A stretch of 64,000 nt of DNA from a virus (lineage: Duplodnaviria; Heunggongvirae; Uroviricota; Caudoviricetes), in the IMG/VR virus record IMGVR_UViG_3300031992_004563, positions 32,001 to 96,000 of that record; one strand, 5' to 3'. The notes under the pieces are model-generated. The model made no database searches. It had not been told where the DNA came from and saw nothing but the letters and a program-made list of their open reading frames with translations. Position 1 is the first letter of the stretch, and each line of letters opens with the position of its first letter. Of this stretch, positions 10,653 to 44,715 are shown piece after piece. The position numbers and the translations under genes are program-made.

Positions 10653-12599
10653 ATGGAAAATGAAATAACAAAAGAACATATAGAAAAACAAGTTCATGAA
10701 TGGGCTGATAATAATTTGACATTATTTTCATTCAGAGAACATCAATTTGAATATATAGTTGATACTATATATTCAATTTTATCTGGCAATCATATTAATA
10801 TTATTGAGGCTCCAACAGGTTCAGGAAAATCAATTATGGTTATTATAATGGCTGGAGTTCTTTTTGAATATTATGACAAAAAGTCATATATTCTTTGTTC
10901 GGATTTATATCTATGGGATCAATATAATAAAGCCATTGACAAATATAGATTACAAAAATTTGGTAGAATAAAAGGATTACGTGGAAATTATATATGTGAT
11001 GAAACTGAAGAAGATATAGTTGCAGCACCGTGTAGATTAGCATTAATTCCTTTTACCAGTCTTGGTAATAGAGACTGGGCTCTTAAAAATAATTGGCCAT
11101 GTGCTATTTCATGCAAATATGTTAGAGAAAGATTTAGAGCTATAAATTCAGGTATAACATTAATGACATATCAATTATGGTTTGAATATATGATGATATG
11201 TAATGGAACATATGGCACAGATTCTCCATTTAAAGAACGTCAAATTATATTTTGTGATGAGTGTCATAAAGTTCCATCATTATGTCAAGAAGCTAGAGCA
11301 ATTTGTGTAGATGAACATAATATGTTAAATGAAGTTAGTGAAATATTAACATATTGCAAAGAAAATGATTTTATGCTTGATCATCTTGAATTTATGAGAG
11401 ATGTTGATATTGATAGATTTTTGAGAGAATTTAAAGATGTTATTGAAAAGTTTATTAATATTCCAAAAGAAAATCAAGATGAAATATGTGAAGTTTTGGA
11501 AGAATATCAAAGCTATGTTGCATCATATCCAGTTCAATGCTATAATGCAATGAGAACAATGTATGAACAATTATCTAAAGAAAACCCAGAACAAAAACCA
11601 CATCTTTCTAAAAAAGAATTTAAAATCTATAATTTAGCAAAGAAAATGGATGCACATATGTGTGATATTAACAAATACTTTAAAATGGTTAGTATAATGA
11701 GTGATGAATATGCACAAGACCCAAATCATGTTGAAGACCCAAAACACCCATATGGCACAAGATATATTGTTAAAACAGATAATAAAGTTATAAATGAAAT
11801 AACTGGAAGAAAAGAATGGCCAGACAATCCAGTAATAACTTTAAAATTTGCCAAAGAAGATTATTTAGTTTATGACACTTTATTAACTCCATCGCCATAT
11901 GTTGTTATGCTATCAGCAACAATTGGAGGTCATGCAGCATTTGATGAAAATATTGGAACTAAATACACAGTAGATAAGAATTCAATAATGTTTAGAATTC
12001 CATCAACATTTGATTTCTCTAAGTCACCAATATATTATTTACATGGCAAAAAAATGTCAAGAGAATCTATTAATGAGAATTTTCCAATTAATGCAGCTAT
12101 TATTAATAAGATTTTAAAATCGCCAAAACATGAAAATGAAAAAGGCATAATTCATACAGGTTCATATAAAAATGCATGGGATTTGTTTAAATTATTAGAT
12201 AAAGATGTGCAGGAACGCGTGTTTATTTATAATGATTCTAAAGAGAAACAAGATATATTGAAAAAATATGCAAAATCAAAGAATGGCGTTTTAATTGGGC
12301 CTACTTTAACTGAGGGTATTGATTTACCAAATGATGGATGTAGATTCATAATTATATTTAAGATTCCATATCCATACCTTGGTGATGAATTGGTCAAAGC
12401 AAAAGTTTCATTATTCCCAAAATGGTATAATTCAGAAACATCTAAATCTATTATTCAAGGTGTTGGACGTGGAAATAGAACACCAACGGATTGGTGTACA
12501 ACATATATTTTAGATGGATGTTTTGCAAGATTATATGAGGAAACAAGAGAACAATATGCTCCTGAATTTAGAGAGCGAATCAAATTATTAAATAGTTAA
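10653..12599 (+). CDS. DinG/Rad3-like SF2 helicase
   Basis: EAPTGSGKS, DECH, SAT, EGIDLP, QGVGRGNR motifs; Cys cluster for Fe-S. Confidence 0.9.
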   Translation: MENEITKEHIEKQVHEWADNNLTLFSFREHQFEYIVDTIYSILSGNHINIIEAPTGSGKSIMVIIMAGVLFEYYDKKSYILCSDLYLWDQYNKAIDKYRLQKFGRIKGLRGNYICDETEEDIVAAPCRLALIPFTSLGNRDWALKNNWPCAISCKYVRERFRAINSGITLMTYQLWFEYMMICNGTYGTDSPFKERQIIFCDECHKVPSLCQEARAICVDEHNMLNEVSEILTYCKENDFMLDHLEFMRDVDIDRFLREFKDVIEKFINIPKENQDEICEVLEEYQSYVASYPVQCYNAMRTMYEQLSKENPEQKPHLSKKEFKIYNLAKKMDAHMCDINKYFKMVSIMSDEYAQDPNHVEDPKHPYGTRYIVKTDNKVINEITGRKEWPDNPVITLKFAKEDYLVYDTLLTPSPYVVMLSATIGGHAAFDENIGTKYTVDKNSIMFRIPSTFDFSKSPIYYLHGKKMSRESINENFPINAAIINKILKSPKHENEKGIIHTGSYKNAWDLFKLLDKDVQERVFIYNDSKEKQDILKKYAKSKNGVLIGPTLTEGIDLPNDGCRFIIIFKIPYPYLGDELVKAKVSLFPKWYNSETSKSIIQGVGRGNRTPTDWCTTYILDGCFARLYEETREQYAPEFRERIKLLNS

Positions 12600-12603
12600 A
12601 AGT

Positions 12604-13116
12604 ATGAAAACATTAAAAGAAGTTAAATTAGAAAGATTTGGTCATCAAAATAGATATAAACAAATATATACTTATTATCAAATAACATATATTTGGGAAT
12701 ATAAATTTTTAGGGATGACATTTCATAAAGAAGAGAAAGTTCCAATATTATTTGAAAATGAAGTTGATGCAACTAACTTTATTGAATGCGGGTGTAATGT
12801 TGAAATGGATATTGGGGAAAATCTATATAGAAAACCACTTTATCAATTTTATGCATATAAAATGGATGATCCGGATAAAAAATATAAAATACAGGTGGAT
12901 GGACCGCTAGATGGATATGAATCTTTATTTGTAGTTAAGGGGTATGAACAAGAAGAAACATGGGTTTCTTCAAGTGGTGGAAAAATAAGTGATTTTTTTG
13001 AAAAACTAAAACTGCATGAAGACTTTGTTGCACAGCAAAATGAAAAAGAAAGAAAAAATAAAGAATATGTTGATAGTTTATATGAGGTAAAAACATATAA
13101 AATTGAAAAAATTTAA
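12604..13116 (+). CDS. Hypothetical protein
   Basis: Operonic 170-aa ORF. Confidence 0.7.
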   Translation: MKTLKEVKLERFGHQNRYKQIYTYYQITYIWEYKFLGMTFHKEEKVPILFENEVDATNFIECGCNVEMDIGENLYRKPLYQFYAYKMDDPDKKYKIQVDGPLDGYESLFVVKGYEQEETWVSSSGGKISDFFEKLKLHEDFVAQQNEKERKNKEYVDSLYEVKTYKIEKI

Positions 13117-13160
13117 CTTCTATTTTTTATTTTGAATAAAAAGATATAATTTTGTTATAG
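13115..13160 (+). promoter_or_regulatory. Class A promoter
   Basis: AACTTCTATTTTTT...TAATTTTG. Confidence 0.7.
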
Positions 13161-13182
13161 AAAATTAAAAATTAGTAAAATT

Positions 13183-13536
13183 ATGGAAATTATTGATTTA
13201 ACTAAAGAAAATGCACAAGGCCATTTTGGGCATGACCAAATAGATGGGTTAACACAACCAGGTAATTATCGAATTCCTATTCGTACATATACTGATGATA
13301 AAGGTGAACATCACCGTTCAATTGCGGTAGAAGTTGTATCAGTATTTGTTGATAGAGGAACTCAGCTTATTGTAGTTCCAGATGATATGCATGATTATTA
13401 TTACATCTTTTATTATAATGGCAATGAACAATGTTTCAAACCTAATTGGGACCCAGATGAAGATTATCAAAAAGTTCTTAATTGGATCAATATTGAGGTT
13501 GAAACCGATGAAGACGGAAATATTATAGAAGATTAA
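13183..13536 (+). CDS. Hypothetical protein
   Basis: ORF downstream of class A promoter. Confidence 0.7.
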   Translation: MEIIDLTKENAQGHFGHDQIDGLTQPGNYRIPIRTYTDDKGEHHRSIAVEVVSVFVDRGTQLIVVPDDMHDYYYIFYYNGNEQCFKPNWDPDEDYQKVLNWINIEVETDEDGNIIED

Positions 13537-13583
13537 GTAAACTTTTTTCAAAAACAAAATATAATAAATAATAAAAAATTTAT

Positions 13584-13630
13584 CTTCTATTTTTTAGTTT
13601 GATTAAAAAGATGTAATTTTGTATCGTTAA
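13584..13630 (+). promoter_or_regulatory. Class A promoter
   Basis: CTTCTATTTTTTAG...TAATTTTGTATCGTTAA. Confidence 0.75.
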
Positions 13631-13645
13631 ATTAAAAAATATATT

Positions 13646-13819
13646 ATGGAAGACCTTTTAATATCTATTAATGATAAAATTTTTAGTTCATCTGATATTA
13701 AATATCAATGTGATTTAGATGGAACTATTATTAAAAGAAGTGATGGTAAACAATGGGAAATTAAATATAATTATAAAAAACATCAATTATATTTAAAAAA
13801 ATTGAAACAAAATAAATAA
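13646..13819 (+). CDS. Small hypothetical protein (57 aa)
   Basis: ATG right after promoter; MEDLLISINDKIFSS... Confidence 0.55.
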   Translation: MEDLLISINDKIFSSSDIKYQCDLDGTIIKRSDGKQWEIKYNYKKHQLYLKKLKQNK

Positions 13820-13870
13820 ATAAAATATAATAAATAAAAAGAAAAATAATAATTTAATTACTGAATTACA

Positions 13871-13969
13871 ATGATGAAGAGTTTTAAAAATAGTAGATGT
13901 TTTGCAAGCAGTACTTTTAAAAGCACTAGCTGTAAACTTTTTTGGCTCTTTGAGAAGGGTATTCAGTGA
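13871..13969 (+). CDS. Leader peptide of tRNA operon 1 (MMKSFKNSRCFASSTFKSTSCKLFWLFEKGIQ)
   Basis: 21 of 32 residues are K/F/S(AGY)/C/W/L(CTY), matching downstream tRNAs; stop codon lies within the antiterminator strand. Confidence 0.75.
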   Translation: MMKSFKNSRCFASSTFKSTSCKLFWLFEKGIQ

Positions 13970-14064
13970 TTAAAGAAGATTATACATTTTAAGCGATTAT
14001 ATATTTCTTAAGATTAGACATTTACAAAGTTCTTTAGTCACTATGATTAAAGAACTTCATTTTT
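13965..14064 (+). promoter_or_regulatory. Attenuator: antiterminator 13965-13977, terminator 14027-14064
   Basis: AGTGATTAAAGAA and TGATTAAAGAACTT both pair with AAGTTCTTTAGTCA(CT); T run follows; first tRNA starts 5 nt later. Confidence 0.75.
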
Positions 14065-14068
14065 ATAT

Positions 14069-14141
14069 AGATCGGTAGTTTAATTGGTAGAATGACGCAC
14101 TCCAAATGCGTGGGATATGGGTTCGAATCCTGTCCGGTCTG
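14069..14141 (+). tRNA. tRNA-Trp(CCA)
   Basis: Cloverleaf; ACGCA CTCCAAA TGCGT; TTCGAAT. Confidence 0.9.
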
Positions 14142-14245
14142 CAAAACAAAATGATTAAAAGGATAAAACAATGAAACGAAAACAAGTCAAACATATTTAA
14201 TGTCTCGTTAAATCAGAGAGATTACGAGGCATTGTAAAAACAAAC

Positions 14246-14321
14246 GCACTCGTAGCTCAGTTGGTTTTAGAGCACGCGCCTTTTAAGCGTGGGGTCCCGG
14301 GTTCGAATCCCGGTGGGTGCA
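14246..14321 (+). tRNA. tRNA-Lys(TTT)
   Basis: Cloverleaf; CGCGC CTTTTAA GCGTG. Confidence 0.92.
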
Positions 14322-14337
14322 CAAATTAAATAAGTTT

Positions 14338-14411
14338 GGTCTTATAGTTTAATTGGTAAAATCTCGCACTTTTAATGCGTAAGAGTCTCGGTTCGAATCC
14401 GGGTGGGACCA
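14338..14411 (+). tRNA. tRNA-Lys(TTT)
   Basis: Cloverleaf; TCGCA CTTTTAA TGCGT. Confidence 0.88.
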
Positions 14412-14438
14412 CAAAAATGAACATTGAAATTTTATTAT

Positions 14439-14678
14439 GGAGCTTTGGCAGACATGGTGTATGCGCCGGACTGATCATAGATTAGCAACTATAATAAAGA
14501 GCTAATTATCATATGAATGGGAATTGGGATACCATCGCTTGAGATAATATCAAAATAGTGGGAGAGGAAGGTGTTCTCCATAAAGGTTGATAAAATTTTT
14601 AAAAAATTTTATAATTTAGGTTCGAGTCCTAATATGGTAACAAATCCGGTTAACGAGGTTCGAGTCCTCGAGGCTCCG
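14439..14678 (+). tRNA. tRNA-Phe(GAA) with ~167-nt anticodon-loop intron (14475-14641)
   Basis: 5' half GGAGCTT...CCGGA CTGA; 3' half AAA TCCGG...TTCGAGT...AGGCTCC. Confidence 0.8.
14506..14641 (+). ncRNA. tRNA-like element nested in the tRNA-Phe intron
   Basis: 8-bp acceptor TTATCATA/TATGGTAA, D-like arm, T arm TTAGG TTCGAGT CCTAA; no canonical anticodon arm. Confidence 0.6.
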
Positions 14679-14702
14679 CAAATTTGAACATTGAAATAAT
14701 AT

Positions 14703-14775
14703 GGACCAGTAGCTCAAATAGTAGAGCACATCCCTGAAGAGGATGGTGTAGGCGGGGCAGTACCGTCCTGGTCCA
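14703..14775 (+). tRNA. tRNA-Phe(GAA), variant T loop
   Basis: CATCC CTGAAGA GGATG; T loop GGCAGTA. Confidence 0.85.
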
Positions 14776-14780
14776 CAAAT

Positions 14781-14960
14781 GGGTCAGTAGCTTAAAATGG
14801 ACAAAGCACGGTAAAAAGAAGTGGCCGCGGTGTCAATCAGTAATCTGAAATATGGTACTGTAATTTTGCGGAAGCACCGAAAAGAAGTGATATTCGAGTA
14901 AGGAAGCGCATTTTATGTGGCACCTTAAACATAATGCGGGTTCAAATCCCACCTGATCCA
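14781..14960 (+). ncRNA. tRNA scaffold with large inserts in anticodon and variable regions
   Basis: GGGTCAG/CTGATCC acceptor, D arm GCTT/AAGC, T arm GCGGG TTCAAAT CCCAC. Confidence 0.65.
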
Positions 14961-14972
14961 CGAAAATTAAAT

Positions 14973-15049
14973 GACCGAGTGCTCGAGTGGTTTAAGGGGT
15001 GTGGCCGCAACCCACATATTTTTCGTCAGTTCGAATCTGACCTCGGTTT
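14973..15049 (+). tRNA. tRNA-Cys(GCA)
   Basis: TGTGG CCGCAAC CCACA; U73; C at position 33. Confidence 0.85.
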
Positions 15050-15061
15050 CAAAAATAAAAT

Positions 15062-15151
15062 AGAGGAGTACCCAAGTTGGTGAAGGGACCGCATTGCTAA
15101 CGCGGCAGGTCGGAGAAATTCGGCGCAGGAGTTCGAGCCTCCTCTCCTCTA
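15062..15151 (+). tRNA. tRNA-Ser(GCT)
   Basis: Long variable arm; loop TTGCTAA. Confidence 0.9.
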
Positions 15152-15198
15152 CAAAATTATGTATTAATGTGTTTACCAATTTTGTCACTATAGTACTT

Positions 15199-15217
15199 AA
15201 ATAAATATAATATAAAA
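15199..15217 (+). promoter_or_regulatory. Class C (late-like) motif AAATAAATATAATATAAAA
   Basis: Identical 19-mer at 15199, 30644 and 37341, each just upstream of an endonuclease gene. Confidence 0.6.
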
Positions 15218-15233
15218 AGTATTTTATTTAATT

Positions 15234-16247
15234 ATGGAATATAAATGTATATGTGGAAAAGAATTTGATAATGCATTAGCATTAGGCGGGCATAAAGGTA
15301 ATTGCCAATAGGCTAAAGAAGAAAGATAGAAACAATTAAAAATTTTAAAATTAAAAGAAGATAATTATAATTGTATATGTAATTGTGGAAGAAAATTTAA
15401 AACACTAAAAAGTCTAAATTCACATGCTAGATTTTGTGATCAATATTAGAAAAAAGATAAATAGCTATCTAAATATTTAAATACAGAAACATTAATATAT
15501 AAATGTGAATGTGGGTATGAAACAAAAAATTATTAGTCATTAAATTCACATTTTTCTCATTGTAAATTACATAGGCAAATAAATAATAAAGATTGTTCAG
15601 ATGAATATTGGAATAAAAGAAATCATCCGGGTAAAATGTTAGGGTGGGATAATTTTTCAGAAGAGAAAATAAAATCAATATATAAAAAATGTTAGTTAAC
15701 ATTACATAATAAGTATAAATCTGGTGAATTAATACCGACTTTTATGGGAAAACAACATACTGAAGAAACTAAAAAACATTTATCAGATATTGCGGTAGAA
15801 CATAAATTAAATGGAACATCTCCAGCACATTTAGGTGAGCATATGTCATATTTAGAAAAATGGTTTTATAATGAAATTTTATAGAAATATAATATTTTAA
15901 ATAAATTTGATGTTGTAAGAGAATATTGCGAAAAACCATATTTTATTGATTATTCTTTTCCTAATATTAAAGTTGGGTTTGAAATGGATGGCATGTTTCA
16001 TTTAACAGATGAAAATCATATAAGACATGATAAAAAACGAGATGAATATTTAACTAGTATTGGTTGGACACTATATAGATATAATTATGAACAAATTAAA
16101 TATGATACTGATAAAACAATTGAAGATATATTAAATGTAATTCAAAAATATACAGATAATAAATTAGGAGAAGCTAAATTATATAGTTATCAAGAATATA
16201 AAAAATTAATTACCCCAGTACCCGAATTGGTATAGGGGCCAGATTAA
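15234..16247 (+). CDS. Free-standing homing-type endonuclease: 3 Zn fingers, NUMOD3, DUF559/Vsr-like domain (TAG=Gln)
   Basis: CxCG...HxxxC three times; FMGKQHTEETKKHLS; FIDY...FEMDGMFH; 8 in-frame TAG; stop falls inside tRNA-Leu. Confidence 0.8.
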
Positions 16248-16293
16248 GGATCTGGTGTCACAAGACATGAGGGTTCGAGTCCCTCCTGGGGTA
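16212..16293 (+). tRNA. tRNA-Leu(AAG)
   Basis: CCAGA TTAAGGA TCTGG; long variable arm; ACCCCAG/CTGGGGT. Confidence 0.88.
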
Positions 16294-16323
16294 CAATAAA
16301 TATTTAAATGAATAATTTAATCT

Positions 16324-16674
16324 ATGAATATTGAATATTCAGTTAAAGAAGAAACAACAGATTTTGGAAAGGTTTGGTATTTTACCGATGAAGAGAATGT
16401 ATCAAGATTTGCTCTTTATATGTATAATGATGAACCCCAAAATTTTTATTTATCTAATATATATGTAGATATTAAATATAGACAATCTGGGCGAGGAAAT
16501 TATATTTTAGAAAAAGCAACAGAAATTGCTAAAAAATACAATGCAGAAAAGCTAATGTTAAAGGTTCTTGATAAATCTTTTATGCATGAATGGTATGAAC
16601 GGCATGGATTTAAAGATTTAATATATGATGAAGAAGAAAATGAATATATTTGGATGATTAAAGAACTTAAATAA
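16324..16674 (+). CDS. GNAT acetyltransferase
   Basis: IYVDIKYRQSGRG motif A; WYERHGF. Confidence 0.85.
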   Translation: MNIEYSVKEETTDFGKVWYFTDEENVSRFALYMYNDEPQNFYLSNIYVDIKYRQSGRGNYILEKATEIAKKYNAEKLMLKVLDKSFMHEWYERHGFKDLIYDEEENEYIWMIKELK

Positions 16675-16704
16675 AATAGAAAATAAAAATAGAGGTTTAA
16701 TTGA

Positions 16705-16753
16705 AACTTCTATTTTTTCTTTTATATAATTTTTATTATTTTTGTATCGTTAA
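16705..16753 (+). promoter_or_regulatory. Class A promoter overlapping a terminator-like hairpin
   Basis: AAAATAGAGGTTT/AAACTTCTATTTT hairpin, then TATTTTTGTATCGTTAA. Confidence 0.7.
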
Positions 16754-16770
16754 TTAAAATACATAATTAT

Positions 16771-17085
16771 ATGAGCAAAAGTTATTCAAAAATAAAAAAA
16801 TTTGGTATTTGTACTGGTAGCAATACTGAATATTATCGTGAGAAGCGTCGTACTATTCGTGCAAAGGATAAACAGTTAATTCGTAATACCCTTGCTCATC
16901 ATAATGTATCTGAGTTTGATGAAGTATATACACCGCTTAATTTACCATTTAAAAACGATTGGAATGAGCCTACTGATGGTACTTTTGTAATGGATGCAAA
17001 ATCTATAGATAGAGATACAATTAAAAGTCCACATGGTGGATATGCAGGAATATATACCACAAAAGATGGTAAGATTAAAAAATAA
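16771..17085 (+). CDS. Hypothetical basic protein
   Basis: First ORF after promoter. Confidence 0.7.
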   Translation: MSKSYSKIKKFGICTGSNTEYYREKRRTIRAKDKQLIRNTLAHHNVSEFDEVYTPLNLPFKNDWNEPTDGTFVMDAKSIDRDTIKSPHGGYAGIYTTKDGKIKK

Positions 17086-44197: not shown

Positions 44198-44596
44198 ATG
44201 AATTACAACATTCAAGAAAAGAAACACTATTTCATTGTAAATGGCGTTAAAGTTCATTGGAATTTTAAATTATTGCCTAAAGGTTTTGAAGCAATAACAT
44301 TATTTGGGCATGTTTATGATGTTCATCCAAAAAATGAATTAAAAACATTTTTAGAAACCTATTGGGGAAGAGTAATGGTTAATCATGAAAGAATTCATAT
44401 AATGCAAGCCGAATCTTTTAAACTTAGATATTTTGCATTTTATATAATATATCTATGGTGGTGGATAAAAGGTTTGTTTAAATATAATTTTAGTAATTTT
44501 GAATCATACTATAAAATTCCATTTGAAAGAGAAGCTTATCATAATGAAAAAGATTTTTATTATGATGAAGTACATTGGAAAGAATTTAAATGGTGA
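44198..44596 (+). CDS. HExxH-containing hypothetical protein
   Basis: AITLFG, NHERIHIMQ, PFEREAY. Confidence 0.75.
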   Translation: MNYNIQEKKHYFIVNGVKVHWNFKLLPKGFEAITLFGHVYDVHPKNELKTFLETYWGRVMVNHERIHIMQAESFKLRYFAFYIIYLWWWIKGLFKYNFSNFESYYKIPFEREAYHNEKDFYYDEVHWKEFKW

Positions 44597-44640
44597 TTTT
44601 TGTAATGGTCTTTACAAAAATGATCATTTATTTTTTATTT

Positions 44641-44715
44641 GCGGGTGTAGCTCAGTTAGCTTAGAGCGTCTGACTTCCAATCAGAAGGCCCTGGGTTGAA
44701 GTCCCAGTACCCGCA
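44641..44715 (+). tRNA. tRNA-Gly(TCC)
   Basis: TCTGA CTTCCAA TCAGA; T loop TTGAAGT. Confidence 0.88.

Follow-up and report, generated by a model that had tools for sequence, protein, structure and literature searches.

In the amino-acid operons of enterobacteria, transcription is controlled by multivalent leader-peptide attenuators such as the ilvGMEDA, ilvBN and thr leaders. A short leader open reading frame (ORF) with several kinds of regulatory codon is followed by an intrinsic terminator and a mutually exclusive antiterminator, an upstream strand can sequester the antiterminator, and a ribosome that finishes at the stop codon occludes the antiterminator strand. In pheM-pheST of E. coli, a leader with Phe codons controls phenylalanyl-tRNA synthetase. 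To our knowledge, all described leader-peptide attenuators control genes for amino-acid biosynthesis or aminoacyl-tRNA synthetases. Why phages carry transfer RNAs (tRNAs), and how these tRNAs are controlled, has been debated for decades. Here we describe a phage locus whose novelty is that the genes behind the leader are tRNAs, neither biosynthesis nor synthetase genes. It lies in the window—the whole 64,000-nucleotide (nt) stretch analyzed, bases 32001-96000 of the 380.5-kb Caudoviricetes record IMGVR_UViG_3300031992_004563—and, on balance, its codons and predicted folds suggest that positions 13836-14068 are probably a multivalent ribosome-mediated (leader-peptide) transcription attenuator gating a tRNA array that starts at 14069. 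An earlier note on this DNA had proposed such an attenuator, an interpretation that conservation, competing folds and codon tracking support. A literature search found no description of an attenuator of tRNA genes, and ‘attenuat’, ‘leader’ and ‘terminator’ do not occur in the main texts of two papers on Lak phages.

The proposed element resembles the enterobacterial attenuators in the features listed above, with P1 (below) as a candidate for the sequestering pairing; the general principle of such attenuators is given in the abstract of PMC1183508. Unlike them, it is a phage element, and because its controlled genes are tRNAs rather than biosynthetic enzymes its regulatory codons mirror anticodons (Ser only as AGY, Leu only as CUY) and not amino acids; its first pairing strand (region 1) lies in the 5′ untranslated region (UTR) beside the start codon instead of within the ORF. 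There is no sequence relation to the enterobacterial leaders, and an Rfam search of 13000-17000 at E≤1 gave no leader family and no T-box, only tRNA and chance matches. As in pheM-pheST, the leader peptide is proposed to sense the supply of charged tRNA and to control a component of the decoding machinery, but pheM-pheST is cellular, responds to a single amino acid and has a synthetase as its target. As in T-box riboswitches, a terminator/antiterminator leader would report tRNA status, but a T-box recognizes uncharged tRNA by direct binding and does without an ORF, whereas the window element has a conserved one. A reason for wanting particular tRNAs on demand, Lys included, comes from two recent papers on phage tRNAs as replacements for host tRNAs lost to defense nucleases (PMC10264068, PMC11555353), which appear to concern the tRNAs and not a regulatory leader.

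Leader codons and their conservation

The leader ORF lies between a promoter-like site (13802-13831) and tRNA-Trp at 14069 (Table 1). Its 32 codons include five for Lys (three AAA, two AAG), five for Phe (every one TTT), two for Cys, one for Trp, two for Leu (CTT and CTC) and six for Ser, all AGY (three AGT, three AGC), which reproduces every codon count of the earlier note. The array tRNAs read 21 of the 32 codons, or 21 of the 31 that follow the initiator against 6.3 expected; the share of this codon set among the 98,721 codons of the genome’s long ORFs is 20% (20-21% overall). AGY makes up 27% of Ser codons genome-wide, compared with six of six in the leader, and the leader uses CTC, which accounts for 0.08% of codons. 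Of ATG ORFs only 28-40 codons long, taken from the six frames of the 380 kb, 2 of 1000 reach 21/32 and 3 of 1000 have at least six AGY codons, while 431 of 760,848 segments of 32 codons hold 21 codons from the array-read set. When decoding groups are ranked by observed/expected usage, the six served by the array are the six most enriched of 25 (Mann-Whitney p=8.6e-5). From these codon counts, a match by chance is unlikely.

The window has a G+C content of 29%, and TAG is read through in its genes: in-frame TAG occurs at 6.8 per 1000 codons in long ORFs, which end in TAA (255) or TGA (40). The best named matches of its helicase (10653-12596), among 496 records, are Prevotella Lak megaphages at 39-40% identity. 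Closer relatives came from a helicase search of IMG/VR (L002, L003, L004 and L005; 67-86% identity) and from a scan of metagenomes with a helicase profile, in which 37 loci were found and the array was present only in L012 and in L010, the same contig as L002. All five relatives have a Trp-first array with an upstream ATGATG start, a 32-33-codon frame, a hairpin and a U-run; in all of them the TGA lies inside GTGATT(T)AAAG and the GATTA repeats are kept. The leader frame is the only one free of TAA and TGA in all lineages tested (window, L002, L003, L005). The open frame that the earlier note had drawn is conserved, with the same start, length and stop context, in 5/5 relatives that carry the array. 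Among the three independent lineages (window, L002, L003 group), 4-fold sites of the helicase are 45-60% identical, that is, saturated, and the leader ORF is 60-72% identical compared with 72-79% for the part that follows it. Thus, the peptide sequence is barely conserved, yet frame, length, ends and composition are kept.

The codons of the leader also follow the content of the array. The relatives’ arrays include tRNA-Val(TAC)—that of L002 also Arg(TCT)—and their leaders have two to four Val codons, whereas no Val codon occurs in the leader of the window, whose tRNA-Val belongs to a different array. The seven array groups rank first to seventh among 25 in L003, L004 and L012 (p about 2e-5); L005 has Gly tied with the top-ranked groups, and in L002 the match is weaker (17/31 vs 8.4 expected, p=8.6e-4). 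These tests used the codon usage of the window genome for all lineages, and the p-values are not independent because the lineages share ancestry.

GenBank phages gave no close DNA relatives, only tRNA-to-tRNA matches; a scan of IMG/VR with the leader pattern gave four stretches and no contig beyond the four known; a loose hairpin-pattern scan of IMG/VR gave 119 stretches, in which filtering left three of the four known contigs as true homologues; and the GATTA-repeat pattern gave three chance matches and no leader in GTDB genomes. In the metagenome scan, relatives with a 38-40% identical helicase had no tRNA within 10 kb.

Competing helices around the stop codon

Duplex folds and constrained folds with part of the leader masked by a ribosome predict three mutually exclusive helices in every lineage. 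The terminator (region 3 with region 4) has 13-14 base pairs (bp) and -16 to -22 kcal/mol across lineages. The antiterminator joins region 2 to 14030-14042, which comprises the 5′ arm of the terminator and the CAC of its loop (13-16 bp, -14.5 to -15.8 kcal/mol across lineages, -15.8 in the window). The third helix, P1, pairs the 5′ UTR with the stop region (13853-13866 with 13961-13974; -10 to -18 kcal/mol) and had been overlooked in the earlier note. Both folds proposed there are found, and its statements on the layout hold as well: the TGA (13967-13969) lies in AGTGATTAAAGAA (13965-13977), a segment able to pair with the 5′ arm of the terminator, and the terminator ends 5 nt upstream of tRNA-Trp. 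No space for a promoter is left between the two.

The antiterminator was matched by 6, 1, 4 and 5 of 500 dinucleotide shuffles of the window, L002, L003 and L005, respectively. When a ribosome masks positions within codons 6-27 before region 4 has been made, the predicted fold is the antiterminator in the window, L002, L004 and L005 and at 4/5 stall positions in L003 (the exception is codon 11). A ribosome placed at the stop gives the terminator. When the ribosome is left out, the predicted fold is P1 in the window, but the nascent fold of L002 shows the antiterminator. In the terminator, 78/78 cells are paired in six sequences and one pair is changed on both sides (U-A to C-G, L002), although the shuffle control, with six sequences only, is not significant (72/500). 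Co-variation of P1 and the antiterminator was read from duplex folds because MAFFT misaligns region 2 of L002: three P1 positions before GTGATT change on both sides among lineages, and the base directly before it (A:U in the window, U:A in L002) co-varies with its P1 and antiterminator partners alike. The last sense codon reads CAG in the window and TAG in the L003 group, which fits TAG=Gln and also P1.

Contigs from RNA libraries fit read-through precursors. A metatranscriptome contig with 100% identity is colinear with 13882-14497 and so reaches from the ORF across the hairpin to tRNA-Trp and the two tRNA-Lys, and a second contig of the same run (14702-15124) begins, after adapter sequence, at the 5′ end of tRNA-Phe. 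In a run of another study, a relative’s leader is joined to its hairpin; one relative’s variant leader in an RNA-library contig has a Ser AGT changed to Cys TGT, still within the array-read set.

We infer from these patterns a leader that would be translated, a terminator that would act at its U-run, a kinetic competition between folds and a response to tRNA supply. RNA polymerase would transcribe the leader while a ribosome translates it. A ribosome that quickly reaches the TGA would cover region 2, leaving region 3 to pair with region 4, and the polymerase would stop at about 14062-14066. Where charged tRNA is scarce, the ribosome would lag at codons for Lys, Phe, Ser (AGY), Cys, Trp or Leu (CUY), and region 2 would be free to pair with region 3; no terminator would form, and the polymerase would proceed into Trp-Lys-Lys-Phe-Cys-Ser-Leu. 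If the leader carries no ribosome, region 2 would be captured by region 1 and transcription would terminate. The predicted outcome is negative feedback, in which the array tRNAs are made while, and only while, their codons are decoded slowly.

A Bacteroidetes-type -7 box, TAGTTTTG, occurs inside the ORF only in L003 to L005. Another, TAATTTTG, is kept ~250 nt upstream of the leader (window ~13600-13625; L002 10895-10920; L003 7670-7700); in the window a 57-codon ORF (13646-13819), not present in L003/L004, lies between this box and the leader.

Lak megaphages and competing explanations

The design recurs independently in Lak-A2, Lak-B5 and Lak-C1: before both tRNA arrays stand a promoter-like motif, then a short ORF, and then a strong hairpin whose U-run adjoins the first tRNA. 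Array (a) holds His, Pro, Arg(ACG), Arg(CCT), Gly and Cys and, further on, Met; by a by-eye reading, its Gly gene is interrupted in Lak-A2. The 42-codon leader (a) differs in composition along with its array, as it would if leader codons track tRNA content: it has Met 6, Cys 4, Gly 5, Pro 3, Arg-CGN 1 and His 2, for 21/41 array-read codons against 6.2 expected, and lacks Ala, Asp and Trp codons although it is richer in G+C. In Lak-B5 the count is 19/41 vs 7.2 expected (P=2e-5; rank test p=0.005) and the array groups are six of the top seven of 24. Eighteen array-read codons of leader (a) fall at codons 6-28, upstream of an antiterminator strand (-39 to -26 from the stop) that pairs with the 5′ arm of the hairpin (-11.9 to -16.5 kcal/mol; matched by 1-9 of 300 shuffles). 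Array (b), with Trp first and 16-19 tRNAs, follows a leader of 37 codons that seven other IMG/VR Lak contigs carry too. The candidate antiterminator of this leader does better than shuffles (matched by 5-6 of 300), but its 1:2 helix is no better than they are. Upstream of both Lak leaders is a shared motif of ~60 nt, the palindrome TTTTGAAAAAAAGTTYTCAAAA followed by AGACTTTTGAAAAAAATTTAGATATATATAAT (L185 560-660; L188/L189, Lak-A2, Lak-B5), which from its sequence looks like a common promoter plus operator and whose exact 26-nt core occurs once in each of seven IMG/VR Lak contigs.

More tentatively, Lak-type megaphages could possess a codon-addressed, on-demand tRNA supply, with each array placed behind a leader written in its own codons and the loss of host tRNAs—via host shut-off, codon mismatch or anticodon-nuclease defenses—switching on the exact replacement set. 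The specific suggestion of host anticodon nucleases as the trigger is an idea only and is not supported by the results here. An on-demand supply, if real, would be the first attenuation of tRNA genes and a built-in sensor of tRNA-targeting immunity: the phage would gauge the decoding of specific codons and respond with the matching tRNAs, extending classical attenuation from metabolite supply to the decoding machinery. The simple signature of mini-ORF, switch and tRNA array would then predict the tRNAs whose supply a phage treats as limiting. Being small and self-contained, the cassette is directly testable with reporters.

Several findings weigh against the attenuator as proposed. In each lineage the antiterminator is thermodynamically weaker than the terminator, which means that any switch has to be kinetic. 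P1 was matched by 2, 76, 54 and 6 of 500 dinucleotide shuffles in the window, L002, L003 and L005, and thus is not above shuffles in L002 and L003; nor is a P1-type helix in the Lak leaders, except weakly in array (a) of Lak-B5 (19 of 300). The window’s family offers only three independent lineages, and L003, L004, L005 and L012 are mosaic (L004 has the helicase of L003 with the tRNA-Trp of L005), so that their 93-97% identical leaders may reflect recombination rather than selection. No comparable leader precedes other tRNAs in 21 further tRNA gaps of the window or the tRNAs of G001, a relative’s record. The RNA-library contigs show neither ends nor levels, and DNA carry-over in them is possible. 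The L002 leader has seven Asn codons and its array no tRNA-Asn. Lak leader (b) matches its array no better than chance (26/36 vs 23.8 expected and 30/36 vs 25.3), a test with little power because the array is so large, and its Val codons do not follow tRNA-Val.

The Asn-rich L002 leader and the chance-level match of Lak leader (b) also speak for the strongest rival, an unlikely one in our judgment: a switch that senses translation in general, as overall ribosome progress or initiation, with the codon match a by-product of composition or shared rarity. P1 adjoins the start codon, and therefore initiation alone could free region 2. However, the enriched groups are nearly the array groups in two independent leader types (top 6/25, 7/25 and six of the top seven/24), the rare CTC recurs, Ser is AGY in every instance in the window’s leader, and Lak leader (a) has no Ala, Asp or Trp codons despite its higher G+C.

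We hold it to be likewise unlikely that the hairpin is a constitutive terminator or insulator beside an unrelated conserved small ORF, with the tRNAs expressed by leak-through or from a promoter that overlaps the hairpin. The hairpin and U-run do have the plain shape of an intrinsic terminator, the hairpin contains a weak -10-like TATGAT, and TGAACATTGAAAT repeats before inner tRNAs could be internal promoters. Yet the hairpin leaves 5 nt before tRNA-Trp, its -10-like box is not conserved in L003 to L005, every lineage retains a complementarity between regions 2 and 3 that few shuffles equal, contigs from RNA libraries extend from the ORF across the hairpin to the tRNAs, and the codon match would be left unexplained.

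It is improbable, too, that a phage protein or RNA works the switch in the manner of TRAP or PyrR by binding the five GATTA-containing repeats (13968-14050, spaced ~10-34 nt) while the ORF goes untranslated. These repeats are in the best-conserved part of the locus, and on this strand of the 380-kb genome the GATTAnAYATTT cluster is confined to this place, with one more match on the minus strand. However, a TRAP-type array of (G/U)AG triplets is absent from the leader, the repeats are also accounted for by the small hairpin and by strands of the two competing helices, the Lak leaders lack them and keep the ORF and the switch, and a single frame has stayed open at constant length over saturated divergence. 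Finally, the conserved frame and, in Lak leader (a), a Cys, His and Met pattern that could bind metal would suit a functional small peptide with its own terminator and incidental tRNA adjacency, but this is very improbable: composition is kept and the amino-acid sequence poorly so, changes within the L003 group are 4 synonymous and 6 nonsynonymous, and none of five leader peptides falls in a Pfam or PHROGs family below E=0.07.

The tRNA array and neighboring features

Table 1. The proposed attenuator and the tRNA array behind it, in window coordinates.
Feature	Position	Strand	Remarks
Promoter-like TTGAAA-N18-TATAAT, upstream of leader	13802-13831	+	11/12 consensus matches; conserved in L003/L004
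Region 1, 5′ UTR strand TTTAATTACTGAAT	13853-13866	+	Ends 4 nt before ATG; pairs with region 2 (helix P1)
Leader ORF, 32 codons + TGA	13871-13969	+	Peptide MMKSFKNSRCFASSTFKSTSCKLFWLFEKGIQ
Region 2: last codons, TGA and 8 nt beyond	13961-13977	+	Pairs with region 1 (13961-13974) or region 3 (13965-13977)
Small hairpin of GATTA-containing repeats	13986-14014	+	Between regions 2 and 3; predicted in every lineage
Terminator hairpin, 13 bp	14027-14057	+	14027-14039 (region 3) / 14045-14057 (region 4)
Terminator U-run (UUUUU)	14060-14064	+	5 nt before tRNA-Trp
tRNA-Trp(CCA), first gene of array	14069-14142	+	ARAGORN, Rfam
Two tRNA-Lys(TTT)	14246-14322, 14338-14412	+	ARAGORN, Rfam
Interrupted tRNA-like gene	14439-14680	+	~195-nt insert in anticodon loop; read by eye
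tRNA-Phe(GAA)	14703-14775	+	Rfam tRNA 45.8 bits; anticodon read by eye; missed by ARAGORN
Second interrupted tRNA-like gene	14781-14960	+	~90% conserved in L002
tRNA-Cys(GCA)	14973-15050	+	ARAGORN, Rfam
tRNA-Ser(GCT)	15062-15152	+	ARAGORN, Rfam
Inserted endonuclease-like ORF	15234-16211	+	DUF559, zinc fingers, 8 in-frame TAG; absent here in L002
tRNA-Leu(AAG), last gene of array	16212-16294	+	ARAGORN, Rfam

The earlier note had the array encode ‘exactly’ Trp, two Lys, two Phe, Cys, Ser(GCT) and Leu(AAG). All of this stands apart from the second Phe, and ‘exactly’ is slightly too strong because that gene was read by eye only and because another interrupted gene has no trusted identity. Within 14439-14680, ARAGORN calls only an odd ‘???’; from our by-eye reading, this gene is possibly a second tRNA-Phe(GAA) with an insert. 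For 14781-14960, ARAGORN calls Leu(AAG) with an intron, which is doubtful, and its intron-mode identities for the interrupted tRNAs (Leu, Ala, Ile) are not trusted. Both of these genes, as well as those at L003 8083-8233 and L185 2935-3094, carry inserts of 75-195 nt inside or close to the anticodon loop; the inserts have no Rfam intron match, and 14781-14960 contains the internal direct repeat GCACGGTAAAAAGAAGTG / GCACCGAAAAGAAGTG. For Lak tRNAs, Devoto et al. (PMC6784885) have already reported introns.

The spacer of ~100 nt between Trp and Lys (window 14143-14245; L002 11283-11391) is nearly identical in the two despite saturated neutral sites; it contains a 10-bp hairpin (AATGTCTCGT...ACGAGGCATT) and may represent a small RNA or a signal for processing. 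Several inner tRNAs have the motif (A)TGAACATTGAAAT 8-12 nt upstream (window 14417-14429 and 14685-14697; L002 11565 and 11746; L003 8334). A GNAT gene comes after the array (window 16324), and the motif is similar to its first codons, ATGAATATTGAATAT (MNIEY); such motifs could be internal promoters or scars of tRNA insertion at the start of the GNAT gene.

In L002, tRNA-Leu comes directly after tRNA-Ser with no insert between them. The DUF559 ORF of the window extends to 16247 and runs into the tRNA-Leu gene, and an endonuclease-like ORF of another kind occupies 8576-9450 of L003, in the gap before tRNA-Leu(AAG), which there follows tRNA-Cys.

ARAGORN finds 31 tRNAs in the genome, 30 of them inside the window. 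A tRNA with anticodon CTA, a TAG suppressor, was not found in the window’s own record (76% complete) but is encoded in the record of a relative (L202 968-1042; G001 14467-14540). Elsewhere in the window, a strong hairpin (-17 kcal/mol) with a U-run at 44586-44640 stands directly before tRNA-Gly(TCC) at 44641; it has no leader ORF and is probably the terminator of the upstream gene.

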